This document shows, piece after piece, positions 5,331-38,117 of a stretch of 39,086 nucleotides of DNA. The DNA lies in IMG/VR virus record IMGVR_UViG_2541047917_000011, one strand, 5' to 3'. The position numbers and the translations under genes are program-made. The notes beneath the pieces are model-generated. The model ran no database searches. It saw only the letters and a list, made by a program, of their open reading frames with translations, and was not told where the DNA came from. How positions within the stretch are numbered: the stretch's first letter is position 1; every line of letters starts with the position of its first letter. The DNA comes from a virus. Taxonomy: Duplodnaviria; Heunggongvirae; Uroviricota; Caudoviricetes.

Positions 5331-8281
5331 CAGCGGTACTCCTTACGTTGTTTCTGAGCCAGCAGACGCTCCAGCATTTTTTCCAGCTCATGCAGGCTCA
5401 TATTCAGGGCGCCAGTCAGTCCGGCAGGCGCTGTGGTTTCCCTGCCATTGAGGAAAAACTGAGGATTAAAGCTGACCTGGATACCACCAGACGTTCCACC
5501 GCCGGTTGCAGCTGCACCACGGCCTGAATATCCGGCAGCCAGGATTTCAGGCGAGGGGATACGGGGAACATCCGGTGTCATCTCATTTGCCAGACGTTGC
5601 CCTGGTAAAATCGATGCCCGGGTGGAGAGCGGAATAGCGGGCATGGAAGACAAACTATTGATTACGGCTCCGATCGCATTTTTAGCAGACGACATAAACC
5701 CATTGATATCGGGCAACGGCATACTGAAGCGAACACCTGAAGTGTTATCCCGTATTTCTGGCCCCTGAATGCTCACGGGCATTTTGGGGAGCAGTTCACT
5801 GGCCATTCGCTGCCCGGCCAGAGCTGCAAGCGGAGTGGTCCGCTGCAGGCCAATGGCGGCCCCCTGCGCGATATTGTCACCAAAGCCCATAAACACGCGG
5901 CTCGGCGAATGAATGCCCAGCTTTTCGCTGAACCAGCCACTGATGCTGTCACCCATTCCGGTTACACTGGATTTGAGCGACTCCCATTTGTTTTTGATAC
6001 CGTTAATCAGACCGTCGACAAGATGGCCACCGAAGTCGGTGAACTTTGCCGGCAGATCAACACCAAGATATTTCAGCGCAGCTGCAAAGGCTTTATAGAG
6101 CAGACCTGCCGGCGACCAGTTAATCAGCAGCTTACCAGTTCCCGCGATACCGCCGTTAAAGGCTTCCTGAATGTCAGCCCAGCACTGTTTAAACCAGCTA
6201 CTGATGCTGTCACCCATTCCGGTTACACTGGATTTGAGCGACCCCCATTTGTTTTTGATACCGTTAATCAGACCGTCGATAAGATGGCCACCGAAGTCGG
6301 TGAACTTTGCCGGCAGAGCAACGCCGAAATATTTCAGCGCAGCCGCAAAGGCTTTATAGAGCAGGCCTGCCGGCGACCAGTTAATCAGCAACTTACCAAT
6401 TCCCACAATGCCGCCGTTAAAGGCTTCCTGAATGTCTGCCCAGCGCTGTTTAAACCAGCCACTGACTGCCCCCCAGTTGCGGTAGATAAGGTAAGCTGCT
6501 GCCGCGACAGCGGTGATAACGAGACCGATGGGATTCATCATCAGCGCACGTCCAATCCAGAGAACAGCACGTCCGGCGAGCATAATTCCGCGAACCAGCC
6601 CCCCGGAGAGCACGCCACTCAGTGTTCTGGCTCCTTTGGCGACGGCGCTAAATCCGGTCACCAGCCAGCGGAGCTTACCGCCTTGCCCCAGTGCGAGCGA
6701 CAGACGAAGCCAGTTGGCCCGAAGTAAAACAGCATTTTTCCAGACACTTACAAAGGGGGAAATAAGGAGATTCAGCCCCAGTTTGAGACCAACAGTCGCT
6801 ATCTTAATCGCAAGGAGCGCACTGATGAGCTTAAAAGCCCCACTGACAAATTGCGGGTGAGTCGCTACCCAGTGTTTTGCCCCCTGAATGAGTGGAAGCA
6901 GTTCCTGAGTCAGAGAAATAAAAGATGGAGCTAATTGATCGCCCAGCGTAATTGCCAGATCACGACTGCTGACCATAAGTGCTTTAGTGGCTTCAAGGGG
7001 AGATTTCAGCCGCTGATCATAAGCACTGGCAAGCAAATCGTTATCCGCAGCCCTGAGAGCACCGGCACGGATCTCTCGATATCTGTCCATGTTGGCCAGC
7101 ATCGGGCGGATAAATGCCATGACCTGCATATCCGCGAACATATCGCCCAGACCAAAGTTTTTCGCCAGAGCCTGAAGTGCCTCATCTCTTGCCGTATCAT
7201 TCTTTATTTTCATGGCTGATTTGAAGCCGGCCAGCGCTTCGGGGCTTTTGGCATTGAGGTAACGTTCTATAACACTCAACATCCCTTCAATCGGAGAGAT
7301 CCCCGCAGCTTTATAACTCGCAATAGATCCCTGCAAATCAATACCCAGATCAGCAAACTGTTTCTGAGTATCGCGGGCAAAAATTTTGGTAAGAAAGTTT
7401 TTAAAATTATTGGCTGCTTCGTCGGTGGAACCTGCACCGATTTTTGCTATCTGGAGACTGGCCCCGATTTCAGCAACAGCCTCTTTTCCACTGGCAATAC
7501 CCGCCATCATTGGGGCCAGGGACTGCATCCACTTGACCTGATCCGGGATTTCAAATGACCCCTGGTCACCGGCATAAGCCATAATATTCTGAACGGCACC
7601 AAAATCTCTGGCCGCACCTTTCAGGGAGTTTTGCCAGACTGCGGCCACTTTTGCCCAGTCCTGAGCAGACGTGCGTGTTGCCGTTGCCGCGCGGGCAATA
7701 TCCGGCATCAGAAAACCGATATCTGACACATTATCAATATTGTCGCTGATGAGTGAACCCACCGCCTCCTGCAGCTCATCCTGATACTGATTGTATTTAA
7801 GCGCCCAGCCTTTTATCTGTCCGGCAAGTGCATCCCGCGTTTTATTGTCATATTTTGCGGTGATCGACATATCAATCATTTTGTCCTGAAAAGACATGGA
7901 CTGCTGAACGGCAGGGGAAACCGTATGATAAACAGTCTGTGCCATGCCATACGCTTCAATCCCCTGACCATACAGCGCCATGCGGTTAGCTTTCAGCGCA
8001 TCACTGGTAGCGGATGCCGCTGACAGACGGCGCTGCTGGCGCTCAATTTGCTCCATGGTGCGGCTTACCCGCAGCAGCTCGCTGTTGAGATGCTGCATCC
8101 GGGAAGAACCCAGTTGACCATAACGTTCTGTTGCACGGGTTAAAGCGTTCTGACGTTCCTGCAGGCGGCGTGAGGTATCGCTCAGGGAATCAAGCGCACG
8201 GCGGGTACCGCTCATTGCAGAACGGAATGTGCTACCAATCATCCCGCCGATAACAACGCCGACTGAAAACTGTCCCGACAT
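5330..8281 (-). CDS. Tail tape measure protein
   Basis: 983 aa, coiled-coil N-terminal half, Gly/Ala-rich hydrophobic segments, internal tandem repeat; located between chaperone and U/X/D genes. Confidence 0.85.
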   Translation of the reverse strand: MSGQFSVGVVIGGMIGSTFRSAMSGTRRALDSLSDTSRRLQERQNALTRATERYGQLGSSRMQHLNSELLRVSRTMEQIERQQRRLSAASATSDALKANRMALYGQGIEAYGMAQTVYHTVSPAVQQSMSFQDKMIDMSITAKYDNKTRDALAGQIKGWALKYNQYQDELQEAVGSLISDNIDNVSDIGFLMPDIARAATATRTSAQDWAKVAAVWQNSLKGAARDFGAVQNIMAYAGDQGSFEIPDQVKWMQSLAPMMAGIASGKEAVAEIGASLQIAKIGAGSTDEAANNFKNFLTKIFARDTQKQFADLGIDLQGSIASYKAAGISPIEGMLSVIERYLNAKSPEALAGFKSAMKIKNDTARDEALQALAKNFGLGDMFADMQVMAFIRPMLANMDRYREIRAGALRAADNDLLASAYDQRLKSPLEATKALMVSSRDLAITLGDQLAPSFISLTQELLPLIQGAKHWVATHPQFVSGAFKLISALLAIKIATVGLKLGLNLLISPFVSVWKNAVLLRANWLRLSLALGQGGKLRWLVTGFSAVAKGARTLSGVLSGGLVRGIMLAGRAVLWIGRALMMNPIGLVITAVAAAAYLIYRNWGAVSGWFKQRWADIQEAFNGGIVGIGKLLINWSPAGLLYKAFAAALKYFGVALPAKFTDFGGHLIDGLINGIKNKWGSLKSSVTGMGDSISSWFKQCWADIQEAFNGGIAGTGKLLINWSPAGLLYKAFAAALKYLGVDLPAKFTDFGGHLVDGLINGIKNKWESLKSSVTGMGDSISGWFSEKLGIHSPSRVFMGFGDNIAQGAAIGLQRTTPLAALAGQRMASELLPKMPVSIQGPEIRDNTSGVRFSMPLPDINGFMSSAKNAIGAVINSLSSMPAIPLSTRASILPGQRLANEMTPDVPRIPSPEILAAGYSGRGAAATGGGTSGGIQVSFNPQFFLNGRETTAPAGLTGALNMSLHELEKMLERLLAQKQRKEYR
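5921..6465. repeat. Tandem duplication (period 261 bp, about 2.1 copies, ~90% identical) inside the tape measure gene
   Basis: Motif AACCAGC(C/T)ACTGA recurs at 5931, 6192 and 6453; encodes repeated ~87-aa unit WFKQ.WADIQEAFNGGI... Confidence 0.85.
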
Positions 8282-16212: not shown

Positions 16213-17662
16213 AGAGAATACGGGCCAGCCGTTCCTGCAGATCGTCCGTGTTCATCTGAGGGTAGAGCTCCGCCAGTTCGCCCAGCAGCTCAGTCGGGTT
16301 AACCCCGTTTTCGACCCGCTTAAACAGAGGTGCCAGGACGGGTTCCAGCGCGCCATTTAACACACCTCCGTTCATCAGAATGTCCAGCGCGTCGTCAAGC
16401 TGCTGCTGAGCCTGAATATCGGCATCAATCGCCTCGGCAAATGACAGCGGCAGCATGTTATTCTGGCGTTCCGACGGTGATGTCTCGTCAATATCGCCGT
16501 CCTGCAGTTGGTACTCACGCTTAAAGTATTGCGGGGTCAGACGCAGACCCGCCCGGGTGAGTTTTTCGTCGCGGGTGGCGCGGGTGTCATCAATGGTCTC
16601 CTGTTCCCACATGGCCCAGACCGGACACGGCACATCGCCGAAGTTCAGGGTGACCACCGTTCTGATAACCTGATTCACTGCTGCCTGAATGATGTCCGCA
16701 TCCGCATCGCGGATATCAGCCGTTACCTCCAGCCCGGCCTGTGCAGAGGCCTTGTTACTGTTCGCTTCCGTGGTCTGATTCTGACCAAGTAATGCAATGG
16801 AGATCTCACTGCGTGACAGTGTGATCAGCTCGCGGAATACCTCGCTGCTGTCCGCCTTACCATCCGCGGCTTTGAGTTCGATGCTGCTGTCATCGGGGAT
16901 GGTGGCCACCGCGTCCTCCACCATCTGCTCCATGGAGTCCAGCAGTTTTTCAATCTCTGCATCATTTGCACCCCTCGGGTGCTTACCGATCACCCACGGG
17001 GAGCCAAACTTTTCGGCAAAGCGGAGCCAGAATTTCATCCCGCCTTTCTTGAAGGCGACCGGCCAGAAGCACATGGACAGGTCCGGGAAACCGTAAGGAT
17101 TGTCATACGAGGCATCCTGTGCCGGCACCACGAATTTTGACGGTGACAGCAGCTCACCCTCCACACCCGCATCACGCGCCCGGAAGCGCAGGCAGTTGTC
17201 CGTATCAAACTGAAACCACTCAGGCGGTTTGCCGACAATATCCGTCACTGCCCACGCCCTGACCGAACGGCCCCACATGATTTCACAGGGCTGATACCCG
17301 TAGAGCACGGCATCACTCATCTCACCGATGATGCGGGACAGATCCAGATCGTCGAGCATGTCGCGGATGAAACGGAAGACCCGGGCAGAAGCGTGACCGC
17401 GCTCCAGTCCACGCTCCAGTGATTTGAGCGCTGCTTTACGTCTGCGGATACAGCCCCCAACCAGCGGGTCGGTGCGCAGTTCGCGGTAGATACGGATATC
17501 CCGTCCCTGAGCCTTGAGAATGGGATCAGGATTGGGCAGATACATGCCCAGTCCGTAAAAGTCGATCGCGCGGCTGCGGGAGGCAATCTGCGCGGTCAGT
17601 GATTTCTGAGGCTCAGAAAAAGCAACAAATTCATCGGGTGAAACCCAGATACCCCTCGCCAT
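16166..17662 (-). CDS. Portal protein (Mu gp29, DUF935 family)
   Basis: 498 aa ORF directly after terminase large subunit (overlap at 17662). Confidence 0.8.
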   Translation of the reverse strand: MARGIWVSPDEFVAFSEPQKSLTAQIASRSRAIDFYGLGMYLPNPDPILKAQGRDIRIYRELRTDPLVGGCIRRRKAALKSLERGLERGHASARVFRFIRDMLDDLDLSRIIGEMSDAVLYGYQPCEIMWGRSVRAWAVTDIVGKPPEWFQFDTDNCLRFRARDAGVEGELLSPSKFVVPAQDASYDNPYGFPDLSMCFWPVAFKKGGMKFWLRFAEKFGSPWVIGKHPRGANDAEIEKLLDSMEQMVEDAVATIPDDSSIELKAADGKADSSEVFRELITLSRSEISIALLGQNQTTEANSNKASAQAGLEVTADIRDADADIIQAAVNQVIRTVVTLNFGDVPCPVWAMWEQETIDDTRATRDEKLTRAGLRLTPQYFKREYQLQDGDIDETSPSERQNNMLPLSFAEAIDADIQAQQQLDDALDILMNGGVLNGALEPVLAPLFKRVENGVNPTELLGELAELYPQMNTDDLQERLARILFVANIRGRLHERDNG

Positions 17663-19257
17663 CAGAATCCCTCCAGCATACGGGCCGCCTGACGACGACG
17701 GCGTGAGCTTGCCTTCACCGGCCCTTTGTTAATTTCACGGCTGGCGAAATACGCCAGCGCCAGTGCGATGGCTGAATCCCCGTGGCGTTTACCACCGTCA
17801 GCCTTTGCTTTTGAGCGTTGCTCCGGTACGCGGGGGACACCGTTCACCACCTGAACGGCCCGCAGGTCATCCAGTGTGTCTTCATCCTTTGGTAAGTCCA
17901 CCAGGTTACCGTCTTCCAGTGCAGCTTTGACCGGAGGCATATGCTCCCGGTACCAGCCTTCGGTTGGCATCACCTGCTGAACCCGGCCGGAGCCGTAGCG
18001 CTGCATGGCGTATTCAGCCAGATAGGCACCATTACCACGGGCATCAAACGCTGCACCCAGCAGACCGGGCAGGCCATCCATCAGATACCAGGTGATTTGC
18101 TCCTGCTGTCTGAACGGCACGTTACGCAGCTCCAGTACGAATGGCACGCGTCGTACCAGGTTCTTCTCCTGCAGCAGGGGATAGTCCACCGACAAATCAC
18201 CGCTACGGCCAAAGTCGCGCCCCAGGAAAGAGCGGGCATCAGTGGGGAGTGCCTCCAGCAAGGGTTTCAGATACTCATCAAGCCAGTCCTGCGTCTCGCG
18301 GAAGCGAACCTCATCAGACAGCAGTTCATAACCTTCCTTGCAGGTCAGACGCAATACCGGCGTATCAGCGGACATGCGGGACTCTATCAGGGCACGGGAC
18401 AGCCAGGCACCGCCACCGTTGGCCGGAATACAGTCAAGCTCTTCGGATGCGCCGGCACCGTAGAATTTGTACACCGATGCCATCCAGGCCTGCTCGGATG
18501 CCTCCGACCATTCCTTCCCGGTGCGCAGACAGACGCGCCGGAACAGCCCCTCAGATACGGCTTCCCGGAAAGTGATGCGATGTATGCTGCCTCCCTGACG
18601 TCCGGCACGGATATCCCCGATAAGCGTATTGAACGGATTGTCGTCACCGTCATGGGTGGAGATAACGCGTACCTTTCCCCCCCAGATAAGCATCGCCAGC
18701 GCCGCTTTCAGCAGTTCGTCCAGTTGCTCATGGAACGCCGCTTCGTCGATAACAATAATACCCTGACGGCCACGCAGGTTAGACGGGCGGCTGGAGAGCG
18801 CAACAATACGAAAGCCGGAGTCAGGAAATTTGATGGTGTAAGTCCTGATGTGTTTGTCGTCGTCGTCCTCTTCCCAGAATCCTTCTTCAATTTCACTGGC
18901 CGCATAGTTGAATGCCCGTGCCCACATCGCACACGCCTGAATGTATTCGACGGTCATGTCCTGGTTATAAGCGATGTAATACACATTCATCCCGCCTGCT
19001 GGCGCAGAAGAGGCGGCGCTCAGTACGTTATCGGATGCCTCAGCCCATGTAATACCGGTACGACGGCTCTTTTCTATCACCTTAAGCGGAGAGGTGTCTG
19101 CCACCCAGCGCTGCTGGTAAGGCAACAGAACGGGAGGAGCATCCAGCGCCGAGGTATCAGGCAAAACGGGAGCAAGGTTATTCCTCCCGTCCATGGGACT
19201 CATCCCTTCGGGGCCACCGCCAGCGGCGTTTAAAATCACTCCGGATGATTTTGTCAT
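17662..19257 (-). CDS. Terminase large subunit (Mu gp28 family)
   Basis: 531 aa; nuclease/ATPase-like motifs; follows small-subunit-like gene with 4-nt overlap. Confidence 0.85.
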   Translation of the reverse strand: MTKSSGVILNAAGGGPEGMSPMDGRNNLAPVLPDTSALDAPPVLLPYQQRWVADTSPLKVIEKSRRTGITWAEASDNVLSAASSAPAGGMNVYYIAYNQDMTVEYIQACAMWARAFNYAASEIEEGFWEEDDDDKHIRTYTIKFPDSGFRIVALSSRPSNLRGRQGIIVIDEAAFHEQLDELLKAALAMLIWGGKVRVISTHDGDDNPFNTLIGDIRAGRQGGSIHRITFREAVSEGLFRRVCLRTGKEWSEASEQAWMASVYKFYGAGASEELDCIPANGGGAWLSRALIESRMSADTPVLRLTCKEGYELLSDEVRFRETQDWLDEYLKPLLEALPTDARSFLGRDFGRSGDLSVDYPLLQEKNLVRRVPFVLELRNVPFRQQEQITWYLMDGLPGLLGAAFDARGNGAYLAEYAMQRYGSGRVQQVMPTEGWYREHMPPVKAALEDGNLVDLPKDEDTLDDLRAVQVVNGVPRVPEQRSKAKADGGKRHGDSAIALALAYFASREINKGPVKASSRRRRQAARMLEGF

Positions 19258-21083: not shown

Positions 21084-21807
21084 AACTGCTGCCTCCCCAT
21101 GTGAGATATCGCGGTGCCAGTTCGCGCAGGATGCGCTGCGGATAATGGCGGTTCTCCCGCCAGCTGGCCGCATTGCGTCCGGCATTCACCGTGGCGACAT
21201 GTCCGAACCAGCGGGTGCTGTCCAGACCTTTCTGTGATGCAAGCCGCCTGTCCCGTTGTACCCAGCCCAGACCACCGTTATAGCCCGACAGTGTCATGGC
21301 CATACGCTCGCAGTCACTGGCGGCGCTGACACGCTGCCACAGCCAGCGGTCATAGCTGACCAGCGCCCGGATAGCCCATGCCGGATTAAACGGCTCACGA
21401 CTGCTCAGCATCGGTATCAACTGGCTTATCCAGTCGGCAGTGGCAGGCATGAACTGCGCCAGTCCCTGAGCGCCAGCCGGCGAGATCGCATCAGGTCGCC
21501 AGCCGCTTTCCTGATGCAGTTGCGCGGCGAAATCGGCCACCGGCGCAGACAGTCCCCATTCAAGCCGGGCATTACGGATCACATCATCGCGATACTGCAG
21601 CGCAGCCTGCGGAGGTTGTGCTGCGCATGCCTGGCTAAAAAAGCCGCCACACCAGAGCAACATTGCGACAAAGAATACCCATGCCATATGAACCAGAAAG
21701 GTCCCGGCGCGAACTGACAGGCGTTCGGTTCTGATGAAGACCCGAAAGGCTTCGAAAGCCAGTTTCAGGGACATGCATACAATCCAGGTGATCTGCGGCC
21801 AGTTCAT
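21067..21807 (-). CDS. Endolysin, lytic transglycosylase (SLT domain) with N-terminal hydrophobic signal/SAR-like segment
   Basis: ESGWRPDAISPAGAQGLAQFMP motif; start 21807 lies 2 nt after the holin-like stop; alternative start ATG 21687 (MAWVFFVAMLLW...). Confidence 0.8.
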   Translation of the reverse strand: MNWPQITWIVCMSLKLAFEAFRVFIRTERLSVRAGTFLVHMAWVFFVAMLLWCGGFFSQACAAQPPQAALQYRDDVIRNARLEWGLSAPVADFAAQLHQESGWRPDAISPAGAQGLAQFMPATADWISQLIPMLSSREPFNPAWAIRALVSYDRWLWQRVSAASDCERMAMTLSGYNGGLGWVQRDRRLASQKGLDSTRWFGHVATVNAGRNAASWRENRHYPQRILRELAPRYLTWGGSSCVASG

Positions 21808-21809
21808 GA

Positions 21810-22160
21810 TTAAAGCCCCATCGCAACAGCCAGGCAGACCGCTGCAACAATCAGTGCACGGCGGATTAACGCAGCAGAAAACACCAGGTGAAGGCCGGTC
21901 TGTACCGGGAAACGCCCTTCAGCCATCAGCCTGTCGTCATGTTTCAGGTACTGACCGGGACGGGCTTTGGGGAAGAGCGAACGGTCAAGCCAGTAACCCA
22001 GCACTGCTGCCAGCGTGATGAGTGCCAGCTTGTAGATCACAACAGGCAGCTGCTGTGGTGAGACCAGAGCGATGGTGCCCAGCAACAGCACTGAGGTCAG
22101 CAGCCAGCCGCTGAGGCGAGGTTTTTTAACAGGGGGAATGAATTTTTTCAGGTTTTTCAT
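21810..22160 (-). CDS. Putative holin / lysis membrane protein
   Basis: About 116 aa with 2-3 predicted TM helices; ATG 22160 preceded by AAGGAGA; first gene of lysis cassette. Confidence 0.45.
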   Translation of the reverse strand: MKNLKKFIPPVKKPRLSGWLLTSVLLLGTIALVSPQQLPVVIYKLALITLAAVLGYWLDRSLFPKARPGQYLKHDDRLMAEGRFPVQTGLHLVFSAALIRRALIVAAVCLAVAMGL

Positions 22161-22290
22161 GTGTGTCTCCTTATCTGGTGGAGACAGCATCACAAATACA
22201 GGGCGCGAAGGATTTTAAAGCGCGTTAAGAGAGCCGGGGATACGGGATGTGCAGGATAAACGATGAATTATTCACAGAGGAGAATACGAT

Positions 22291-22767
22291 ATGACGCACA
22301 CACTGAATCCGGTCATCACTGTCACTGTGTCCGGTCCTGTGGGCAGCGGTAAAAGTTACGTACTGGCGCGGATAGAAGAGATGGTGAAACAGGAACTCGG
22401 AAACAGCGTCATTGTCGATGCTGCTGACGTGGAGAATGAGCGCCGTATGAATGGCGAAGATCTGACGACCTGGCAGAAGCCACGGGGTGGCACAGTGATC
22501 AGGCTGGAGGAATACACGGGACAGGGCCTGTTGTCATACGGCGAGGAGCGTATCTGTCGGACGAATGAGCTGCTGGATGTTATATGCCCCACGGGCCGGC
22601 AACCCTGGATACTGCCCGATGCACTGCATGCCACCATTGCGGCACTGATGACAGTTTACGATCAGGAGCTGCTCATGAAGGAGTTACGTAAACTCACCGG
22701 TCAGCCAACAGAATGTTGTTCGTCTCCGAAGTACGGCAAACAGGAAAACGCCCCGGATAATCCTTAA
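22291..22767 (+). CDS. Small P-loop NTPase / nucleotide-kinase-like protein of unknown function
   Basis: 158 aa; Walker A GPVGSGKS near N-terminus, candidate Walker B VIVDAAD; AGGAG RBS; only plus-strand gene amid minus-strand genes. Confidence 0.6.
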   Translation: MTHTLNPVITVTVSGPVGSGKSYVLARIEEMVKQELGNSVIVDAADVENERRMNGEDLTTWQKPRGGTVIRLEEYTGQGLLSYGEERICRTNELLDVICPTGRQPWILPDALHATIAALMTVYDQELLMKELRKLTGQPTECCSSPKYGKQENAPDNP

Positions 22768-22786
22768 GATACCTCCTGAACAGAAA

Positions 22787-22802
22787 CAGCCCTGAAGGGC
22801 TG
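22787..22802. terminator. Hairpin between convergent genes (P-loop gene and accessory operon)
   Basis: CAGCCC-tgaa-GGGCTG perfect stem; T-rich on minus strand and A-rich on plus strand. Confidence 0.45.
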
Positions 22803-22804
22803 CA

Positions 22805-23395
22805 CTAAAAAAAGAAGTGTATTATTGCCCAAACAGCTATAACGATGATTCCCAGCCCAAGAGCCGATTCTAACTTATCTTTGGCAGTCATTTTTACTGT
22901 TGTAGCGGGCGCAGGTAAGTCTTGCTGCTGTGGATTTTCTGTTAGTTGTTTACGAGAAGAAACATCGCCCCTGTTAGTTTGCTTCATGTTGATTACAGAT
23001 GCGTTATGGGCATTATCAGCAGCAATTGACTGAAGTTTTACAAAAGTTTTTGAATCTGTTTTAGCCAGAAGTAACCTATTTCCCGTAAACATTGCCTTAA
23101 AAGTGATAGTTTTTTTCGTCTTGTCCGCCGCACCAAGCAAACCTCCAATGACCAACCCTGCACCACCAAAGATTAATCCACCAAGCAAACCTGCGCCTGC
23201 CGCCTTACCTATACGGCTTTCCTCTTCACTATCCGCAAGTTCAATCGATAAAAGCTCTTCTTTCAGATTTAATACAATATTTTCAGGAAAGCCTTGTTTT
23301 GGTTTTTTGGCAAACACGATGGTACCGAACCCCATGCTTGCCCACCCTTTAGGAAAACTTCCTGCGATAACCTGAATCCCTGCCATGTTCATCAC
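22805..23395 (-). CDS. Membrane protein with glycine-zipper segment, unknown function
   Basis: 196 aa; GAGLLGGLIFGGAGLVIGGLLGA glycine zipper and C-terminal TM (LGLGIIVIAVWAIIHFFF); AT-rich. Confidence 0.5.
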   Translation of the reverse strand: MMNMAGIQVIAGSFPKGWASMGFGTIVFAKKPKQGFPENIVLNLKEELLSIELADSEEESRIGKAAGAGLLGGLIFGGAGLVIGGLLGAADKTKKTITFKAMFTGNRLLLAKTDSKTFVKLQSIAADNAHNASVINMKQTNRGDVSSRKQLTENPQQQDLPAPATTVKMTAKDKLESALGLGIIVIAVWAIIHFFF

Positions 23396-23476
23396 CTTTT
23401 ACATTAAAATTTCAGAACGCAGCATGATGCCGCCTTTGTCTTTTTTCTGATCCCATGGTAATTCAGCTGTTATTTT

Positions 23477-24463
23477 CTATTTAAGAATAAAACGGTATTT
23501 ACTGTCAGGAGTGCTTTGCTGATCAAGTAGCAGTGAACGACATGGAGCAGTCAAAACCCGAGCATAACTACCATCAGGGCTTATGTTAATGTAACAAACC
23601 TTGCCCTTAACACTATAATTTTCGGGGACGGATGCCTTTGCTGATACAGTAAATTTAAGGGTATGCCAGCCCGTTTTTTGCTTGTAGCTTGAAACCGAAT
23701 GGAAATCATCTGAGTACTTATTTAACCCTGGAAACATGCTGCGCAGTGCGGGGATGGAATCTTCTATTATTTTATCGTTGGTTTTAATGTTAAAAACGCT
23801 GGTTTCAGTAGAAGCTACTGCTTTGGCATTTCCCCATTTACCAGCGAACACAATCATTCCCACGAAAAATATTGCTACAAGAACTAACACTCCCCCCAAC
23901 ACTACTACATGAGGCTTCCGGCTTCTGGTTGGTACAGTTGCGACTGATTTTGCACCGCTTTCCGATGGAGGTGATAGAGTTTTACTCTCATCACGAATAT
24001 TCAGCAGATCATCAAAATAACCAAACACAGCCTGCAACTGCTCTTTGTCTAGGCCTTTAAGATGGGTTGTACCGAAATGCTTCAGACAGTATCTGTCACG
24101 GTCAAGACGATACCCAGGGTCAGTAAGCGCCATTATTTTGCTGACCAGAAGATTACAGTCCTTCATATTCTGGATCTGTTGTGCATATCTCTGAAGGATC
24201 TCAACCGCACCATGATAATCAGCCGCAGTCATTTCATTAACTGTTTTGGTATTAAGTTTCGTGTGGATCGTCATCCATAGCTCGCGCTTACTTTCCCCCA
24301 GATCAACCAATTCATCCATCAATCTGTGTAAATCGCGTTTTTGCAGCAACGAAATTGGTTGCTGGGCCGAAGGAAGTATGTCAGCAGAATAGTTATGAAT
24401 GGTAACATCACCGCTGACAACGTTACCCACATCCCCGTTAACTGTTTGCTTCTCTTTACTCAT
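23477..24463 (-). CDS. Single-pass membrane protein, unknown function, translationally coupled to repressor
   Basis: 328 aa; start ATG overlaps repressor stop (ATGA); N-terminal cytoplasmic domain, TM helix (VVVLGGVLVLVAIFFVGMIVFAG), C-terminal extracytoplasmic domain. Confidence 0.55.
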   Translation of the reverse strand: MSKEKQTVNGDVGNVVSGDVTIHNYSADILPSAQQPISLLQKRDLHRLMDELVDLGESKRELWMTIHTKLNTKTVNEMTAADYHGAVEILQRYAQQIQNMKDCNLLVSKIMALTDPGYRLDRDRYCLKHFGTTHLKGLDKEQLQAVFGYFDDLLNIRDESKTLSPPSESGAKSVATVPTRSRKPHVVVLGGVLVLVAIFFVGMIVFAGKWGNAKAVASTETSVFNIKTNDKIIEDSIPALRSMFPGLNKYSDDFHSVSSYKQKTGWHTLKFTVSAKASVPENYSVKGKVCYINISPDGSYARVLTAPCRSLLLDQQSTPDSKYRFILK

Positions 24464-24885
24464 CTTCTCTTGGTATTTTTGTTCATTATTCCACCTGTTC
24501 CTATGGTTACGTTACCTTTGATAACATTCCCCAGAACATCTCCATGAATAACCTGTTCCGCCCGTTCTCTGGAGGAGCCAGTAGTCAAGGCCGACAAAAC
24601 TGAACCTTTGACCTGTAATGGTGCCTGCCGGTAGTGCTGCAGTAACTCCATTTCATCACGTGATAAAGTTATACCTGATGACTCCCCGGTAAGAATGAAC
24701 TGTACATTGGCCCCAATTCTTGCAAAGGCTGCAAGTAACTCACCTCCGGGAACAGCAACCCCTCGTTCATATTTCCCCCACATTTCTCTTGAAACGCCAC
24801 AAAGGGCTGCTACTTCAGCCTGCTTGAGTGATAACCGCGAACGCTCAGCTTTGAACCGCGACGCGCAAAGAGAATCAAAATTCAC
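24460..24885 (-). CDS. Prophage repressor, XRE-family HTH
   Basis: HTH_XRE pattern (RLSLKQAEVAALCGVSREMWGKYERG); GTG 24885 with GAGG RBS preferred over ATG 24921, which would bury the early promoter inside the gene. Confidence 0.65.
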   Translation of the reverse strand: MNFDSLCASRFKAERSRLSLKQAEVAALCGVSREMWGKYERGVAVPGGELLAAFARIGANVQFILTGESSGITLSRDEMELLQHYRQAPLQVKGSVLSALTTGSSRERAEQVIHGDVLGNVIKGNVTIGTGGIMNKNTKRR

Positions 24886-24895
24886 ATAAACCTCA

Positions 24896-24924
24896 TTGAC
24901 AATGAGAACAATAGTTCTCATAAT
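24896..24924 (+). promoter_or_regulatory. Early promoter: -35 TTGACA (24896-24901), 17-bp spacer, -10 CATAAT (24919-24924), with 20-bp palindromic operator ATGAGAAC-AATA-GTTCTCAT (24902-24921) in the spacer
   Basis: Read directly from sequence; sits 48 bp upstream of the ner-like ATG and between divergent repressor and early genes. Confidence 0.55.
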
Positions 24925-24971
24925 CTATCACATATAAAACAAACATCATTGCATCAACAAAGGAGACAACA

Positions 24972-26449: not shown

Positions 26450-28219
26450 ATGAATGCTGCCCTGACTGAACGACTGGTTTATGTCGCCCGCGCGGCACGT
26501 GACGCGGGGCATGGTAAACGCGGTGCAATATACGACGCTGCCTGTGCTGAACTTGGCATGTCCCGCGCCACTCTGCTGCGCAGGCTGAAGGAGGTCTCTG
26601 TGACTGATAAACGCAAAAAACGCGCCGATGCCGGGCGCAGCGCCCTGACCCGCGACGAAGCCGCGCTGATATCTGCCACACTGCGTGAGGCCACCCGCAA
26701 GAACGGTAAGCGTCTCTATTCCATCGCAGATGCAGTGGAAACCCTGCGGGCTAACGGCTTTATCACCGCAGGCAGAACAGATGAAACCACCAGTGAGTTT
26801 TTCCCGTTGTCTGAAGATGCCATCAGCCGTGCTCTGCGTAACTATGGCCTGCACCCGGAACAACTGGATGCCCCTGCACCACATACCGAAGTGGCCAGTC
26901 TGCATCCCAATCATGTCTGGCAGATTGACGCCTCACTCTGCACGCTTTACTACCTGAGCAATGGACATAAAGGGCTGCAGGTGATGGACAGCGCGAAGTT
27001 CTACAAGAACAAGCCCGCTAACCTTGCCCGTATCGCCAGTGACCGTGTGTGGAGTTACGAGATTACCGACCATGCCAGCGGCTGGATTTACGTTGAGTAT
27101 GTGACGGGCGCGGAATCAGGTGAGAACCTGTGTTCTGTGCTTATCAACGCCATGCAGGAGCGTGGCGGCGCAGACGTGCTGCACGGCGTGCCGAAAATAC
27201 TCTATCTCGACCCCGGCTCGGCAAACACCGCGGGTATGACGAAAAACATGTGCCGCTCACTGGGCATCGACCTGATAGCGCACAAGCCGCATAACGCCCG
27301 CGCCACCGGACAGGTGGAAAAGGCGCGTGACATTATCGAACGCAAGCTGGAGCCGGGTCTGAAGTTCCGGCCGGTTCACAGTCTGGAAGAACTCAACGCG
27401 CTGGCCGCGAAATGGCGCAGCCACTTTAACGCCACGGCTGTTCACAGCCGCCACGGTAAAACCCGCACGGATATCTGGCTGAAGATTACTGCTGAGCAGC
27501 TGAAAAAAGCGCCTTCCGTTGAGGTATGTCGTGAACTGGCTGTGGCGGCACCAGAACTCCGCAAAGTCACGCCAAAACTTCGTGTCTCGTTCCGGGGCAC
27601 TGAATTTGACGTATCAACGGTACCGGGCGTACTGGTTGGTGAAAAACTGATGATTACCCGTAACCCATGGCGCAGCGATGTGGCACAGGTGGTTCTGACC
27701 GGTGAGGACGGCCACGAGACGTTCTTCCTGGTCGAAGAGGTCAGAAAGAACGAGTTTGGCTTTGCTGAAGGCGCGGCGGTATTTGGCGAAAGTTACAAAG
27801 CCCTGCCGGAAACCCCGGCACAGATGGCGGCAAAAGAAACCGAAGCGCTGGTTACCGGTACAGACAACGCCGCAGATGCAGCCGCCGCACGCAAGGCGAA
27901 GGCGCTGCCGTTCGGCGGGCGGCTTGACCCGTATAAACATATCGACGACACCACACTTCCGGCCTATATGCCGAAGCGTGGTCAGGCCTCTGACGTACGC
28001 GGGCCGCGCACTGAACAACGTCCCATGACTCATGTGGAGGCCGCGAAAGCCCTGCGCGATAAGTTCAGCGCCGACGGCCTTACCTGGACGCCGGAACATT
28101 ACCGCCAGTTAACGGCACAGTACCCGGACGGCGTACCGGAAGCCGCACTGGATGAAGTCATGGCCACGCTGACCACACCGGCCCGCAGCAGTGTTATCAG
28201 CATTGTTAACGGCAACTGA
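26450..28219 (+). CDS. DDE transposase, rve (integrase catalytic core) family; not MuA-like
   Basis: 589 aa; N-terminal HTH, catalytic-core-like WQID ... YLDPGSAN ... E spacing. Confidence 0.85.
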   Translation: MNAALTERLVYVARAARDAGHGKRGAIYDAACAELGMSRATLLRRLKEVSVTDKRKKRADAGRSALTRDEAALISATLREATRKNGKRLYSIADAVETLRANGFITAGRTDETTSEFFPLSEDAISRALRNYGLHPEQLDAPAPHTEVASLHPNHVWQIDASLCTLYYLSNGHKGLQVMDSAKFYKNKPANLARIASDRVWSYEITDHASGWIYVEYVTGAESGENLCSVLINAMQERGGADVLHGVPKILYLDPGSANTAGMTKNMCRSLGIDLIAHKPHNARATGQVEKARDIIERKLEPGLKFRPVHSLEELNALAAKWRSHFNATAVHSRHGKTRTDIWLKITAEQLKKAPSVEVCRELAVAAPELRKVTPKLRVSFRGTEFDVSTVPGVLVGEKLMITRNPWRSDVAQVVLTGEDGHETFFLVEEVRKNEFGFAEGAAVFGESYKALPETPAQMAAKETEALVTGTDNAADAAAARKAKALPFGGRLDPYKHIDDTTLPAYMPKRGQASDVRGPRTEQRPMTHVEAAKALRDKFSADGLTWTPEHYRQLTAQYPDGVPEAALDEVMATLTTPARSSVISIVNGN

Positions 28220-28229
28220 GGAGGGAAAC

Positions 28230-29396
28230 ATGCTGGTACTGAAGCAGCAACTGAAAGAGGCCCGTATTCCACAGGCGGTGGTGGCGAGAGCTGTCGATGT
28301 TTCTGAGGCCACGCTGGCCCAGATTGTGAATCATAACGCGTGGCCCCGCACCAGCCCCGGAGAAGTGCGCCGGCGTCTTGCGTCCTGGCTGGAAAGTCAG
28401 GGGATTGATACAACGAAGAGTTTTGATGCTGTACAGGGCGCGGCCACGCCCCGTACAGCGGGTACCACAGATAAAACGAGCCTCAGTGAGGAAGAGAATA
28501 TGTTACTCAAAAAACAGGTGTTATTTCCAGCAACCAAAAAAGCGTTTGGTCTTTTCCGTGACCCGTTCGCCGACGAAGCCATGCAGGGTTCTGATGATGT
28601 GTTCACCACCCCGGACATTCGCTACGTGCGTGAGGCGCTGTACCAGACAGCCCGTCATGGTGGGTTTATGGCCGTCATCGGTGAGTCCGGTGCGGGTAAA
28701 TCCACGCTGCGCCGCGACCTGACTGAACGTATCAACCGCGAGAATGCGCCGGTAATTGTTATCGAGCCATACATCATCGCTATGGAAGACAACGATGTGA
28801 AAGGGAAAACCCTGAAGGCAGCAGCTATTGCCGAAGCCATTATCAGTACCATCGCACCACTGGAAAGCATCAGACGCAGTCAGGACGCCCGTTTTCGCCA
28901 GTTGCATCGCGTCCTGAAAGACAGCAGCCAGGCGGGGTTCAGCCACGTTCTGGTGATTGAGGAGGCCCACAGTCTGCCCATTCCGACACTGAAACACCTC
29001 AAACGCTTTTTTGAGCTGGAGTCCGGTTTCAAAAAACTGCTGTCCATCGTGCTGATTGGCCAGCCGGAACTGGCGACAAAACTGTCTGAACGCAATATGG
29101 AAGTCCGTGAAGTCGTTCAGCGCTGTGAGGTGGTCGAACTTCTGCCTCTGGACAATAACCTTGAAGAATTTCTGACGTTCAAACTGCAACGGGCCGGTAA
29201 ACAGCTGACGGACATTATGGACGCCGGTGCAGTGGATGCCATACGTGCCCGCCTGAGCAATCCGGGAAGTCACCGTAAAAATATGGTCAGCCTGCTGTAT
29301 CCGCTGGCCGTCAGTAACCTGGTAATAGCCGCCATGAATCTGGCCGCTGAAATCGGGGTTCCACAGGTCAACGCTGACGTTGTCAAAGGGGTTTAA
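28230..29396 (+). CDS. Transposition ATPase, MuB-like AAA+ target-DNA activator
   Basis: N-terminal HTH, Walker A GESGAGKST, Walker B-like VLVIEEAH; GGAGGG RBS before ATG 28230; directly follows transposase. Confidence 0.75.
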   Translation: MLVLKQQLKEARIPQAVVARAVDVSEATLAQIVNHNAWPRTSPGEVRRRLASWLESQGIDTTKSFDAVQGAATPRTAGTTDKTSLSEEENMLLKKQVLFPATKKAFGLFRDPFADEAMQGSDDVFTTPDIRYVREALYQTARHGGFMAVIGESGAGKSTLRRDLTERINRENAPVIVIEPYIIAMEDNDVKGKTLKAAAIAEAIISTIAPLESIRRSQDARFRQLHRVLKDSSQAGFSHVLVIEEAHSLPIPTLKHLKRFFELESGFKKLLSIVLIGQPELATKLSERNMEVREVVQRCEVVELLPLDNNLEEFLTFKLQRAGKQLTDIMDAGAVDAIRARLSNPGSHRKNMVSLLYPLAVSNLVIAAMNLAAEIGVPQVNADVVKGV

Positions 29397-32427: not shown

Positions 32428-32877
32428 ATGCAGAAAAAACGCCTGATACAGCTTATCCATATTGCCCGTAATGAACTGGGTATGGATGAAGACACCTACC
32501 GCCAGATGTTACAGGGGCTGACCGGTAAAGCCTCAACCAAAGGAATGGATACCACACAACTAAACTGCGTGCTGGAATCCATGAAAAAGAAAGGCTTTCG
32601 CGTTAAACCAGCCAGAAAAGCCAGCTCCGGTTTACCGCTGGATAACCATCCGCAGTCCAGGAAAATTCGTGCGCTATGGCTTGAAATGGCTGCTGCCGGC
32701 ATTGTTCGTGACCGTTCAGAAAATGCATTAGCGAGGTGGATCAAGCGGGAAACGGGCATCAGCGCCCTGCGCTGGCTCAGTACTGAACAGGCAAGCAGTG
32801 TTATTGAGAAACTGAAGAAGTGGCAGCGCAGAGCTGCGGGAGTCAAACATGAGCGACCTGAATCAGTTTCGAAGTAA
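32428..32877 (+). CDS. GemA-like regulatory protein (Mu gp16, DUF1018 type)
   Basis: 149 aa, family-typical sequence and position just before Mor. Confidence 0.7.
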   Translation: MQKKRLIQLIHIARNELGMDEDTYRQMLQGLTGKASTKGMDTTQLNCVLESMKKKGFRVKPARKASSGLPLDNHPQSRKIRALWLEMAAAGIVRDRSENALARWIKRETGISALRWLSTEQASSVIEKLKKWQRRAAGVKHERPESVSK

Positions 32878-33238
32878 GGGGCCGGAACTCCTGGTGGAAC
32901 TGGCACAGCATACCTCTGAGACCGTTCGCGAGATTATTGATATTGAGCCCGAAGTTGCCGACCAGATTGGTCAGGCCGTCGCGAACCGAATGATGCAGGT
33001 CTGGGGCGGGCAAAACGTTTATTTCCCGATGGGCATGGTATGGAAGGTCAGTCAGCGCGACCGGGAAATCTTCAGGGAGTTTAACGGACGCAACCACCAC
33101 GAACTGGCCCGCAAATTTGGTGTTTCGCTTCAGTGGGTCTACAGCGTGGTTAAGCGGGTAAGAAAAGAAGAACTGGATCGGATGCAGGGCAAGCTATTTG
33201 CTGATGAACCCGATGCAGATACGGAGAAAAAAGAGTAA
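32849..33238 (+). CDS. mor: Mor/C-family transcriptional activator
   Basis: 129 aa with the C-terminal HTH typical of Mu Mor/C; last gene of the early arm. Confidence 0.75.
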   Translation: MSDLNQFRSKGPELLVELAQHTSETVREIIDIEPEVADQIGQAVANRMMQVWGGQNVYFPMGMVWKVSQRDREIFREFNGRNHHELARKFGVSLQWVYSVVKRVRKEELDRMQGKLFADEPDADTEKKE

Positions 33239-33267: not shown

Positions 33268-33324
<57 letters not shown>

Positions 33325-33325
33325 A

Positions 33326-33705
<380 letters not shown>

Positions 33706-33893
33706 AAGTCGTTCCCTCAGGAAGAAGTGATGAGTGACATTTTTCACAGCATCCAAACAATTCTATTTCATCGTTAGCCCTTGTCCTGTAAGGCAATTGC
33801 CTTAACACGCCCGCTATTCATCCTGCCGAACGTAACCGAACGCGCCGGATACATGAGCGGGGTTATCGAGTCGTTAGATCGAGGTATCCGGTT

Positions 33894-35099
33894 TTGAGCA
33901 AGACACCACTGACAGCAAAGGCCATAGACGCCGCACAACCAAAGGACAAGCAATACAAACTCACCGATTCACTGACGCCCGGCCTGTTTTTGCTGGTGCA
34001 TCCCAACGGATCAAAGTATTGGCGATTCAGGTTCTGGATGGACAAAAAAGAGTATTTGCAGGCTATTGGAGTGTACCCGCTAATCAGCCTCAAGGAAGCC
34101 CGTAAACGCGCTACAGAGAGCCGATCTCTGATTGCTAATGGAATTAATCCAGTGGAAGAAGCACGCAAGGAAAAAGCCATTGATGCGCTCAACATGGCGG
34201 CAGGTTTTAAGACGGTAGCGGAGGACTGGCTGGCTACCAGGGTCAGCGGGTGGTCAGAGTCCTACACGAAACAGGTTAGATCGGCACTGGAAAAAGATGT
34301 TTACCCCGTGCTGGGGAAGCGGTCAATTGTCGATATAACGGCCCGTGACGTGCTGGCATTGCTTCAGAAGAAAGAGCGTACCGCACCGGAACAAGCCAGG
34401 AAGCTACGCCAGCGTATCGGGGAGATCTTCAAATTTGCCGTTATCACCGAACTGGTTAACCGAAATCCGGTTGCAGATCTGGACTCGGCCCTGAAAGCCC
34501 GCCGACCAGGTCACAATGCATGGCTGCAAATTAGTGAAATTCCGCCCTTCTACAAAGCCCTTGAGAGAGCCGGGAGCGTTCAGATTCAGACGGCAATACG
34601 TTTGCTTATATTAACGGCATTAAGGACCGCAGAACTGCGTTTAATGCGCTGGGAATGGGTAGATCTGGAGTCAGCAACAATCACCCTACCCGCTGAAGTC
34701 ATGAAGGCCCGCCGACCGCACGTAGTCCCGTTATCCCGGCAGGCGGTCGAGCTATTACAGGACCAGTTTACCCGCAGCGGATACAGTGCTTTCGTCTTTC
34801 CGGGTCGATTCATGGATAAGCCATTGTCAGCCAGTGCGATACTGAAGGCGCTTGAGAGGATCGGCTATAAAGCCCTTGTCACTGGTCACGGATGGCGCAC
34901 AACATTCAGCACCGCACTTAACGAGTCCGGCAGGTACTCACCAGACTGGATCGAGATACAACTGGCCCACGTTCCAAAGGGAATCAGGGGAGTTTACAAT
35001 CAGGCGGCCTACCTGAAGCAACGACGAGCAATGATGCAATCGTACGCGGACGCCATTGATTCAATACTGGCTGGTGACGGCAATCCGCTGGAACCGTGA
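33894..35099 (+). CDS. intZ: Tyrosine site-specific integrase, P4 family
   Basis: 401 aa; N-terminal DUF4102-like arm domain, C-terminal HxxR and catalytic Tyr; TTG start; symbol assigned from genomic context, not from a search. Confidence 0.85.
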   Translation: MSKTPLTAKAIDAAQPKDKQYKLTDSLTPGLFLLVHPNGSKYWRFRFWMDKKEYLQAIGVYPLISLKEARKRATESRSLIANGINPVEEARKEKAIDALNMAAGFKTVAEDWLATRVSGWSESYTKQVRSALEKDVYPVLGKRSIVDITARDVLALLQKKERTAPEQARKLRQRIGEIFKFAVITELVNRNPVADLDSALKARRPGHNAWLQISEIPPFYKALERAGSVQIQTAIRLLILTALRTAELRLMRWEWVDLESATITLPAEVMKARRPHVVPLSRQAVELLQDQFTRSGYSAFVFPGRFMDKPLSASAILKALERIGYKALVTGHGWRTTFSTALNESGRYSPDWIEIQLAHVPKGIRGVYNQAAYLKQRRAMMQSYADAIDSILAGDGNPLEP

Positions 35100-35345
35100 A
35101 CTATAAGGCCGGATTCGTCCGGCTTTTCTTTCGCCTTACTGGTATAAAAGGTTAACAGGTTACACAACCTATCACTATTTTATCCTGTTATCCTTTTATA
35201 CAGCTATACCAATAAAATCAATGATTAAGCCAAGTTTGTAATAAAAAATCCGGGGATCGAAAATAGGATCAACGCAACAAAAAGCCCGGAAGGCCGCTAA
35301 CCAATCCGGGCGATATGGGAAACAAGTAAAAAGGAGAAATCCCAC

Positions 35346-36119
35346 ATGAATATTTTACCAACCGCCTACGCCCCACGGCAAGGCGAATCACTCGGTAAAC
35401 ACAGCCTTCAGAAAATCGACGCGATCCCGGAAGAAGTACGGAGCGCCATTGATGATGGCCTGAATGATATCCGCTTTAATGGTTATCGCTGGGAATGCAA
35501 CGCCAAAACAGGCTGGGCGCGTGTATCACCGATTTCATCACCTGCCGATGCAGAACCTGAATCACCAGAACAAAGCCAGGCAAACGCCCGCGCTGACTTC
35601 CTGGCGTTACAAGGTGAGTATTTATCAGTCACGCAGGAAACTAAAAGCGAGAAGAAATCAGCTACTGATATCGTGAACGAGCTACGCAGTAAGGCCGCTA
35701 AAACTTCGCAGACAGCACCACAGCAGGAAGCGCCGGAAGAACCGGAACAAGCGGAAGCCATGCAGGATAAAGAGACACAATACCAAACGGAAGAAAAAGG
35801 AATTTATTGCAGCTATGTCTGTTTGGGTGCGGCACGTAAGGCATTTGTCAGAAGTGGTTGCGAGAATAAAGCTAAAGCTACAGCCTGGAGCGTATTATCC
35901 AGCATTGCATCAGCAGCAAGAAAGCAGAATGATGGATCTTATGTATCTGAAGTTTGCCAGGCAAAAATAGCTGATGAATGGGGCATGAATCGCCGCACCG
36001 TAATTCGCCAGATGAAAATCCTGGTTGAGTTAGGACTCATTGAGCCATACGGGGAATATGTTATTGGTCAGCACGCAAGAAAATACAGAATGCTTTTTCA
36101 GGTCGAGAACGCAAGATAA
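35346..36119 (+). CDS. Winged-helix DNA-binding protein, candidate iteron-binding replication initiator
   Basis: 257 aa, acidic linker, C-terminal HTH (IADEWGMNRRTVIRQMKILVELGLIE); four iterons begin 65 bp downstream. Confidence 0.45.
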   Translation: MNILPTAYAPRQGESLGKHSLQKIDAIPEEVRSAIDDGLNDIRFNGYRWECNAKTGWARVSPISSPADAEPESPEQSQANARADFLALQGEYLSVTQETKSEKKSATDIVNELRSKAAKTSQTAPQQEAPEEPEQAEAMQDKETQYQTEEKGIYCSYVCLGAARKAFVRSGCENKAKATAWSVLSSIASAARKQNDGSYVSEVCQAKIADEWGMNRRTVIRQMKILVELGLIEPYGEYVIGQHARKYRMLFQVENAR

Positions 36120-36137
36120 CGACTAAAACGCATCAGT

Positions 36138-36167
36138 GGGTCACCTAAAATTGTGGCCCTTTTTATT
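36138..36167 (+). terminator. Intrinsic terminator after rep-like gene
   Basis: Stem GGGTCAC / GTGGCCC (one G-U pair), 8-nt loop, followed by TTTTTATT. Confidence 0.5.
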
Positions 36168-36183
36168 ACTTAAACCATCAACA

Positions 36184-36293
36184 GACGTGTGACATTTGGG
36201 ACACAGGTACGTGTGACATTTGGGATACAGGTCAGAGGGTGACGTGTGACATTTGGGATACAGGTCAGGCCATGACGTGTGACATTTGGGGCA
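36184..36293. repeat. Four direct iterons ACGTGTGACATTTGGG(A/G)YAC..., spacing 24/33/33 bp
   Basis: Core TGTGACATTTGGG found at 36188, 36212, 36245 and 36278. Confidence 0.8.
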
Positions 36294-37201
36294 CACATAG
36301 TATGAGATCTGTATATTCCTTTTTTCTTTTTAAGAGAAAGTAAGAGGCGCGCATTTTAAATGAACACAAACAAGCAACAAGCCCAGCGGACCTTCGGAAG
36401 ACTTCGAGCAATCGCCAGCTCAAAAGACGGTCTGGCAGTGATGGTTATCATCGACAGCTTTCTGAGCTACCGCACAGACACACAGCAGCAGTAAGCAAAC
36501 CGAATGGAAAGCAAAGCGCAAAAAACTCACTCACTGTAAAGCCGATGGGTTTTATCGCGTATACAGACCAGACAGGAAACAGCAGCAAAGCAGCGTATAG
36601 CCAGGTGCAGACAGTACCATCACACGACGCACAGCAGGCTGAGGTGACCACTCAAGCAAGTTTATCCCCGCCGCCGACCACCGCAAACCATCCTGATAGT
36701 GCCAAATTCGAACGGAGTGCTACCTTAAACGCGATTAACACACATAAGCGCTACACTTGCTTACCTGAAAACTTCACAGCGTCACAGCGCGTTTTAGACA
36801 CGTTAAAATCGATGCGATTTCATTAATTTTTCAGCCATCCAGAAATCGGCTTCATATCAAGCCGATTCATCAGCGCGGCGTCCTGCATTGCAGGTTATCG
36901 AAAGAATCAATAACTTTCGCCAATGGCGAAAGTTAAACAATCAATAAAGTCCAGAGTTGGACTATTCACCCAAATTTGGGGCAATGAAATCACACAGATC
37001 CTGCCAGGCTATTCCATCCACCACACAGAACGCTGAGATCTGATATTACCGCCGCACCATTCCACGCCAGACGAATCAAAACAGGCTTACCCTTCCAAGT
37101 GGATAGCTAAAAATTAAGGCTGTCAGAATGCGTTATATTGCGTTTAAACGGCATCGAATTTTAATGTGCGCAATGGTGCCAGATTACAGGCAAAAAAAAT
37201 C

Positions 37202-37495: not shown

Positions 37496-37505
37496 AGGTG
37501 AGAAC

Positions 37506-38100: not shown

Positions 38101-38117
38101 TCGGAGGAGGAAAGACA

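Follow-up and report, generated by a model that had tools for sequence, protein, structure and literature searches.

The product of a 158-residue open reading frame (ORF) in a prophage of Escherichia coli is, judged by profile and sequence comparison, already catalogued but misnamed, and it belongs to none of the described NTPase families. Its only widely conserved part is an N-terminal mini-domain of about 75 residues, and by the alignments it is this mini-domain that defines the protein family PHROG 3787. As judged from its alleles, the ORF is a real and selectively maintained gene; in a fixed slot it represents the short allele, 'N+B', of a gene that is mosaic among phages. The ORF product is neither an ABC ATPase nor a zeta-type kinase toxin, and it does not serve as a motor of replication or packaging. 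With middling confidence we propose that it is an accessory protein in which a phosphate- or nucleotide-binding half-P-loop module, probably oligomeric, is joined to a helical adaptor module.

Genomic setting of the gene

The window (the whole stretch of DNA that was analysed, 39,086 nucleotides) contains a BcepMu-like (genus Bcepmuvirus) transposable E. coli prophage, and Escherichia phage PhiKM shows 97% identity to it over positions 21800-22755. The gene and the features needed to place it are the following.

22291-22767, plus strand: ORF of 158 aa from the ORF list; RefSeq WP_000149906.1 'ABC transporter ATPase'; member of PHROG 3787
22277-22282, plus strand: Shine-Dalgarno sequence GAGGAG, read from the sequence, with 8 nt spacing to the ATG
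17662-19257: terminase, an ATPase-type protein of the same phage
28191-29396: MuB-like AAA_22 protein (RefSeq 'ExeA family'), an ATPase-type protein of the same phage
32849-33238: Mor-family activator (Pfam, 1.3e-43)

The initial annotation had described a plus-strand ORF of 158 residues with a strong ribosome-binding site; the ORF list bears out the former, and GAGGAG, followed by the ATG start, the latter. This Shine-Dalgarno sequence is kept in most alleles in an alignment of seven prophages. The ORF had further been called the sole plus-strand gene in a block of minus-strand genes, divergent from the lysis genes and convergent with an accessory cassette. This description is correct according to the strand annotation of the E. 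coli AR_0015 chromosome, which is 100% identical to the window across positions 22100-24950, the only part that was compared. From the left end of the window to position 24921 all other genes in the RefSeq annotation of AR_0015 lie on the window's minus strand and comprise tail, head, packaging and lysis genes, two membrane genes and a repressor gene. The ATG of the holin gene is found at position 22160 and is read in the opposite direction, while on its other side the ORF faces the gene of a 196-aa membrane protein. An antisense ORF at 22356-22637 was treated as spurious.

The lysis genes of the window encode a holin (Holin_2-3, 1.5e-41) and an SLT endolysin, the packaging genes encode a Mu gp27-like small terminase and a large terminase, and the early genes comprise those for an integrase-type transposase, the AAA_22 MuB-like ATPase, Gam, GemA and the Mor-family activator. 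As the AAA_22 protein and the terminase are encoded elsewhere in the window, the replication and packaging ATPases of this phage are accounted for outside the ORF. An identity as replication/transposition or packaging ATPase was rejected, with no significant match to such PHROGs.

At the right end, within positions 33300-39086, the prophage ends just past the Mor gene and is followed by the host genes grxA, ybjM, ybjL, rcdA, ybjJ and ybjI, which places the insertion site beside grxA; this boundary assumes that the window matches AR_0015 throughout, the identity having been checked for 22100-24950 only. The tail tape-measure gene (5330-8281, minus strand) is a single ORF of 983 aa in the window, and RefSeq lists it in AR_0015 as a pseudogene in two incomplete pieces, a discrepancy that may be due to an assembly or annotation difference.

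The conserved N-terminal mini-domain

Only 65 relatives, 70 to 364 aa in length, were recovered when 1.84 billion cluster representatives were searched exhaustively with the profile, and most of them align only to profile positions ~1-75. The conserved elements of this region are listed below, with motif counts taken over 68 distinct N-domains of relatives.

22291-22515, plus strand: N-terminal mini P-loop domain, aa 1-75, the sole part conserved in the exhaustive profile search
22333..22356, plus strand: Walker A loop G15-P-V-G-S-G-K-S22, counted in 68 relatives
22438..22443, plus strand: E50-R51 pair, with which the second helix begins (E50 63/68; R/K51 60/68)
22510..22512, plus strand: E74, after the third strand ('T-h-h-x-L-x-E'), in 64/68 and nearly invariant in the family alignment

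The domain follows the pattern strand, GxxGxGK[ST], helix, strand, E50-R51, W61, strand, E74. It is also found alone, in phage proteins of 70-90 aa, and fused to many unrelated C-terminal modules. Stand-alone relatives of 70-75 aa terminate exactly at the equivalent of E74, and the extent of these smallest members points to a domain of about 70 residues.

The Walker A sequence GPVGSGKS noted in the initial annotation is present at residues 15-22, in the expected context of a strand, a loop and a helix predicted from residue 21. It is not a chance occurrence, as G20 and K21 are invariant (68/68 each); G15 is kept in 66/68 and S/T22 in 65/68, and in 3/68 relatives GKN replaces GK[ST]. The proposed Walker B 'VIVDAAD' fared differently. 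Its D43 is retained in only 22 of the 68 relatives, the position of D46 is acidic in 54/68, and the strongly conserved acids are E50 and E74 instead; W61 is retained in 46/68. By its conservation E74 is the better Walker-B-like candidate than D43, although such a role would be non-canonical, since E74 stands two residues past the last hydrophobic residue.

One group of alleles bears on how indispensable the domain is. In the 182-aa alleles (P0028; L023/L024 5001-5549), present on 22 contigs, residues 51-124 of the full-length protein are lost in frame according to the alignment, and with them half of the N-domain, i.e., W61, the third strand and E74, as well as most of module B (described below). 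That these alleles persist with half of the domain gone implies that the domain may not be essential to the role of the gene.

Comparison with described protein families

The ORF product matches PHROG 3787 with E=2.1e-107 and 359 bits, residues 1-157 being aligned to profile positions 1-157 of 242. A tblastn search of 50,697 phage genomes gave PhiKM as the sole match, and a profile search of genome contigs, which was swamped by generic P-loop patterns, yielded a single locus in Citrobacter braakii. A literature search with the RefSeq accession WP_000149906.1 returned nothing.

Scans against Pfam, NCBIfam and PADLOC gave sub-threshold matches only, all confined to residues ~4-60. AAA_30 reached 17.9 bits (cut-off 27), ABC_tran 13.6 bits (cut-off 25, aa 4-49 only), Zeta_toxin 12.6 bits (cut-off 22.3, aa 11-47) and KAP_NTPase 14.6 bits (cut-off 20, aa 4-43). 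None of the defence-system models of PADLOC-DB v2 was significant; the best had an E of 0.0073 (SngB), and all matches fell on the P-loop stretch. When 32 N-domains were compared with Pfam, their weak matches were spread over 28 unrelated P-loop families with no consistent assignment, a scatter that indicates motif-only similarity. In a sequence-profile search of the PDB, natural NTPases match over strand 1, the P-loop and helix 1 only (E >= 1e-4), and the longest alignment is to 9jix, a de novo designed P-loop ATPase (positions 8-74, E=2e-4); 6c2u, an engineered 'phosphate-loop protein', was matched with E=7e-4.

As no profile score reaches its threshold, the RefSeq product names are unsupported. 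The name 'ABC transporter ATPase' was rejected given the ABC_tran score and the absence of an LSGGQ-like ABC signature from the 158-aa sequence, and 'KAP family NTPase', which is given to fragments, was rejected given the KAP_NTPase score. An identity as zeta toxin was likewise dismissed, its score being below the cut-off and the neighbours of the ORF being a divergent holin gene and a convergent membrane gene, with no antitoxin candidate.

Predicted structure

AlphaFold2 (AF2) with 12 close homologues gave a poor model with a mean pLDDT of 47. With an alignment of 29 sequences residues 11-70 were modelled confidently (pLDDT 87-94 per 10-residue block), and the model remained poor elsewhere. 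The two models combined suggest a strand at 8-14, the P-loop, a helix at 21-37, a strand at 40-45, a helix at 45-54 and a strand at 68-73, the strands being assigned solely from the first, low-confidence model and the second helix being taken from the second one. DSSP assigns no strands to residues 1-74 of the confident model, which, as a model of the monomer, therefore lacks the sheet. For module B helices are predicted at 85-98, 110-122 and 125-136. Structure searches gave no fold match; the single protein matched by structure, an uncharacterised one of 82 aa from a phage, in BFVD, is itself a family member. The core of the P-loop superfamily is a three-layer alpha/beta arrangement of at least five strands and usually at least 140 aa, whereas the domain described here has about 75 aa and three strands.

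These results bear on the initial reading of the gene, a stand-alone P-loop NTPase that is kinase-like, ATPase- or zeta-like. On this reading the protein would be sufficient in itself as a small NTPase or kinase with a P-loop (zeta-toxin-like, nucleotide kinase, AAA or ABC-like) and would act as toxin, nucleotide-modifying enzyme or defence/anti-defence effector, in keeping with a canonical and conserved Walker A, with weak matches to many P-loop families and with an accessory gene in a hypervariable region. We nevertheless regard this reading as very improbable. The conserved domain ends near residue 75, too short for the fold, and is followed by a helical, interchangeable remainder. The family matches all lie below the curated cut-offs, cover residues ~4-60 only and scatter over 28 unrelated families, D43 is not conserved, and the ABC signature, a neighbouring antitoxin candidate and a matching PADLOC model are all lacking. 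Profile and structure searches assigned no kinase, zeta or AAA family.

A mosaic gene with exchangeable modules

In every enterobacterial BcepMu-like prophage examined that carries the gene, its start lies 130 bp from the holin gene in divergent orientation. The first ~50-75 codons are the same across this slot, and the genes encode proteins of 141, 158, 182, 242-247 or 255 aa. Alignments resolve the alleles into the N-domain (aa 1-75), module B (aa ~85-140), module C in the 242-247-aa forms and several other inserts. Two features of the ORF are of importance here.

22543..22710, plus strand: helical module B, aa ~85-140, with predicted helices; recurs in other proteins
22746..22767, no strand assigned: recombination junction at the 3' end of the ORF, from megablast ends and DNA alignment

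Module B forms the C-terminus of P0034, P0036, P0057 and P0062, which have other middle sections, and also that of P0067 and P0068, proteins without the N-domain. Pfam and PHROG scans of the C-terminal modules of longer relatives detected no known domains except for one PG_binding_1 fusion.

Megablast matches in most E. coli genomes stop at positions 22746-22760 of the window, and homology to the 242-247-aa alleles ceases at the 3' end of the ORF. One explanation for this would be that an incoming immunity/membrane-gene cassette has removed the 3' third of a 242-247-aa gene, leaving a decaying ORF without function. The length of the full-length relatives, the PHROG profile matched over 1-157 of 242 positions only, the end of homology to most E. 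coli copies at the ORF end and the many fragmentary or frameshifted database copies would agree with such a remnant. Several observations make it improbable, however. In the DNA alignment the 158-aa alleles, which differ by 13-17% in protein, have a common stop codon and diverge after it; the L019 allele, differing by 17%, is followed by a 126-aa minus-strand gene and a Dam methylase gene, unlike the window. This common stop with subsequent divergence, together with the end of most E. coli homology at the same place, implies that a module boundary recurs where the ORF ends. The 141-aa alleles, found on more than 24 contigs, likewise end directly after module B, which is a natural C-terminus in other family members, and the P0001 cluster comprises 369 member sequences.

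The substitution pattern, one of purifying selection, points in the same direction. Across pairwise comparisons dN/dS is 0.15-0.44, with 0.30 in both halves between two 158-aa alleles and 0.15-0.36 against one of the 141-aa alleles; when the N-domain is compared with that of a 255-aa relative it is 0.13-0.19. Low dN/dS, the common stop in diverged copies and the existence of the 141-aa alleles argue for a maintained protein and not for debris.

In most relatives a Dam methylase gene comes next on the same strand. The initial annotation had considered a functional link of the ORF to the two adjacent membrane genes; as the diverged L019 allele has different downstream genes, the ORF is not tied to them, and the idea that the three genes form one unit was rejected. 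In L004, a prophage of the same type, a DUF2441 gene replaces the ORF, so the gene is accessory, as had been supposed, and its region between lysis and immunity genes is variable. A close copy (at least 80% coverage) is found in 569 of 5,426 complete E. coli genomes, and the adjacent holin and endolysin genes in 636. The distribution is prophage-linked and apparently rich in ST131, and more than 10% of complete E. coli genomes therefore carry the gene, which databases list by a name that misleads.

Gene neighbourhoods of distant family members

The stand-alone or short members of the family all belong to phages or prophages. In Acinetobacter prophages and IMG/VR contigs the gene order HNH endonuclease, mini P-loop gene, small terminase, large terminase was found; for relatives of 70-90 aa this order occurs in at least four terminase lineages (loci L006-L008, L017 and L025-L033), and in L027 the stop of the mini P-loop gene at 4201 is separated by 3 bp from the start of the small terminase gene at 4205. 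In a Yersinia mollaretii prophage the gene follows a spanin-like LysC gene and precedes HNH and terminase genes, in a marine prophage it adjoins an integrase gene, and on another contig it lies near QueC-like and TubZ-like genes. The 159-aa protein P0087 (L016 1919-2398) is a fusion of an endolysin-type PG_binding_1 domain (Pfam 4.7e-15) with the mini P-loop domain, which stands where the catalytic domain normally sits; this is a single example on a contig of 2.9 kb.

Such neighbourhoods could be taken to mean that the protein is a non-catalytic factor of the late programme, acting in packaging, with HNH and terminase, or in lysis timing, whose loop, instead of binding free nucleotide, would touch a partner ATPase or the phosphates of DNA or RNA. 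In favour of this are the order with HNH and terminase genes in at least four lineages with a gap as small as 3 bp, the Yersinia gene directly after the lysis cassette, the abutment on the holin gene in BcepMu-like prophages, the fusion to an endolysin-typical PG_binding_1 domain and the fact that engineered P-loop polypeptides bind ssDNA. The boundary between early and late genes upstream of the terminase genes is, on the other hand, a common site of unrelated accessory genes in tailed phages, so that position alone is weak evidence and the recurrence of mini P-loop genes there is suggestive, a lead only. Other relatives lie beside an integrase gene or among QueC-like and TubZ-like genes, the gene of the window is on the strand opposite the packaging genes, and L004, a prophage of the same type, does without it, which shows that neither packaging nor lysis has the gene among its core components. 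Taken together, a late-programme factor of this kind is rather unlikely.

Divergent intergenic region and neighbouring cassettes

The ORF and the holin gene share an intergenic region, and a further element lies between the ORF and the convergent cassette.

22161..22290, no strand assigned: intergenic region of 130 bp, of fixed length, common to holin gene and ORF, from an alignment of seven prophages
22210-22231, midway between the divergent start codons: invariant 22-bp block GGATTTTAAAGCGCGTTAAGAG, from the same alignment
22786..22803, minus strand: GC-rich hairpin between the convergent genes, from a terminator scan; it lies beyond the homology break

The block GGATTTTAAAGCGCGTTAAGAG includes the near-palindrome TTAAAGCGCGTTAA and is retained even in a prophage without the P-loop gene. 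A promoter scan of 22161-22290 found no sigma-70 consensus promoter. Late promoters of phage Mu are activator-dependent. By analogy we infer that the block is a candidate Mor-dependent late control region, i.e., a site for the Mor-family activator, and the ORF is probably expressed late and divergently from the lysis operon, as suggested by its position and by the Mu analogy.

In the holin leader (22164-22186, minus strand) TGTCTCC/GGAGACA form a perfect inverted repeat of 7 nt around a loop of 9 nt, and both arms are invariant in seven diverged prophages. Through this repeat the Shine-Dalgarno region of the holin mRNA (AAGGAG, 22166-22171) would be paired to an anti-SD sequence upstream of it, which may serve in translational control of lysis timing.

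The hairpin at 22786-22803 is terminator-like for the minus-strand repressor operon and is part of the neighbouring cassette. In this cassette the gene of a cI-like HTH repressor (24460-24921, minus strand) overlaps the start of that of a 328-aa protein (23477-24463), which has a sub-threshold Flk-like N-terminus and a central hydrophobic segment and is followed on the minus strand by the 196-aa membrane protein (PHROG 12025). The region 22805-24921 (minus strand) looks like a lysogeny operon with two membrane morons that ends at this hairpin.

Proposed mode of action

In the proposed half-P-loop reading the mini-domain would correspond to the first half of the P-loop fold, i.e., strand 1, P-loop, helix 1, strand 2, helix 2 and strand 3. 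Lysine and serine of the Walker A would hold a phosphate-bearing ligand, which could be an NTP or the backbone of a nucleic acid or polyphosphate, and E74 and/or E50 may handle a metal ion or water. Three strands cannot make the usual core of five, so the mini-domain probably works in association with itself, as homo-oligomer, or with a partner on which it docks. The helical modules exchanged at the C-terminus, of which the ORF has module B, would be adaptors that set the binding target, and this role would explain the heavy module shuffling. Transcription would occur late from the common divergent region, which would also drive the lysis/structural operon, under the Mor-family activator. Engineered P-loop polypeptides of 40-55 aa form oligomers that bind NTPs, polyphosphate and ssDNA (bioRxiv 10.1101/2020.07.30.228619), and a weak ATPase activity was reported for a designed P-loop protein (PMC12075096); such an action is therefore physically plausible.

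A wider and more tentative proposal, which we consider possible and yet somewhat doubtful, is that the ~70-aa unit is a natural 'half P-loop' whose oligomers bind and perhaps hydrolyse NTPs or grip nucleic-acid phosphates, and which is spread by phages either alone, next to HNH and terminase genes, or as a constant head that is retargeted by shuffled C-terminal modules. If this is true, the unit would be the smallest natural protein module with a Walker A and a living counterpart of the engineered prototypes that model the origin of NTPases. If oligomeric binding of nucleotides or nucleic acids by the mini-domain is true, it would represent a minimal P-loop module of natural origin, with a bearing on models of the origins of P-loop enzymes, and it would also offer a handle on a widespread, unstudied phage gene family, whose shuffled modules hint at a part in an arms race or in partner switching. 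Should the mini-domain bind neither of these, the gain would be a corrected annotation of the gene as uncharacterised phage protein and not as ABC ATPase.

Comparison with known systems

Within PHROG 3787 the ORF product is a direct member and is identical to the AR_0015 RefSeq protein WP_000149906.1; the allele of the window is without the C-terminal module that corresponds to profile positions 158-242. The 242-aa protein of PhiKM (genus Bcepmuvirus) is 92% identical to the ORF product over 157 aa.

With canonical P-loop NTPases the ORF product has in common the GxxxxGK[ST] between a hydrophobic strand and a helix, a predicted order of strand, helix, strand, helix and strand as in the first half of the fold, and a conserved acidic residue after the third strand of the mini-domain. 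Unlike these, the mini-domain stops after about 75 aa and three strands, and the hhhhD Walker B is not conserved. Zeta toxin and small nucleotide kinases likewise have an N-terminal Walker A in a small protein, and cytidylate kinase gives a marginal match over strand 1, the P-loop and helix 1; the ORF product, in contrast, has no lid, no substrate-binding region and no antitoxin neighbour. The engineered proteins 6c2u (Tawfik laboratory prototypes) and 9jix (PL2x4_2), the latter with weak ATPase activity, resemble the mini-domain in being small and in carrying a Walker A in a simple beta-alpha scaffold. As they were built around the consensus motif, this likeness reflects motif context and not homology, and the phage domain differs from them by its own conserved E50, R51, W61 and E74 and by its natural C-terminal fusions.
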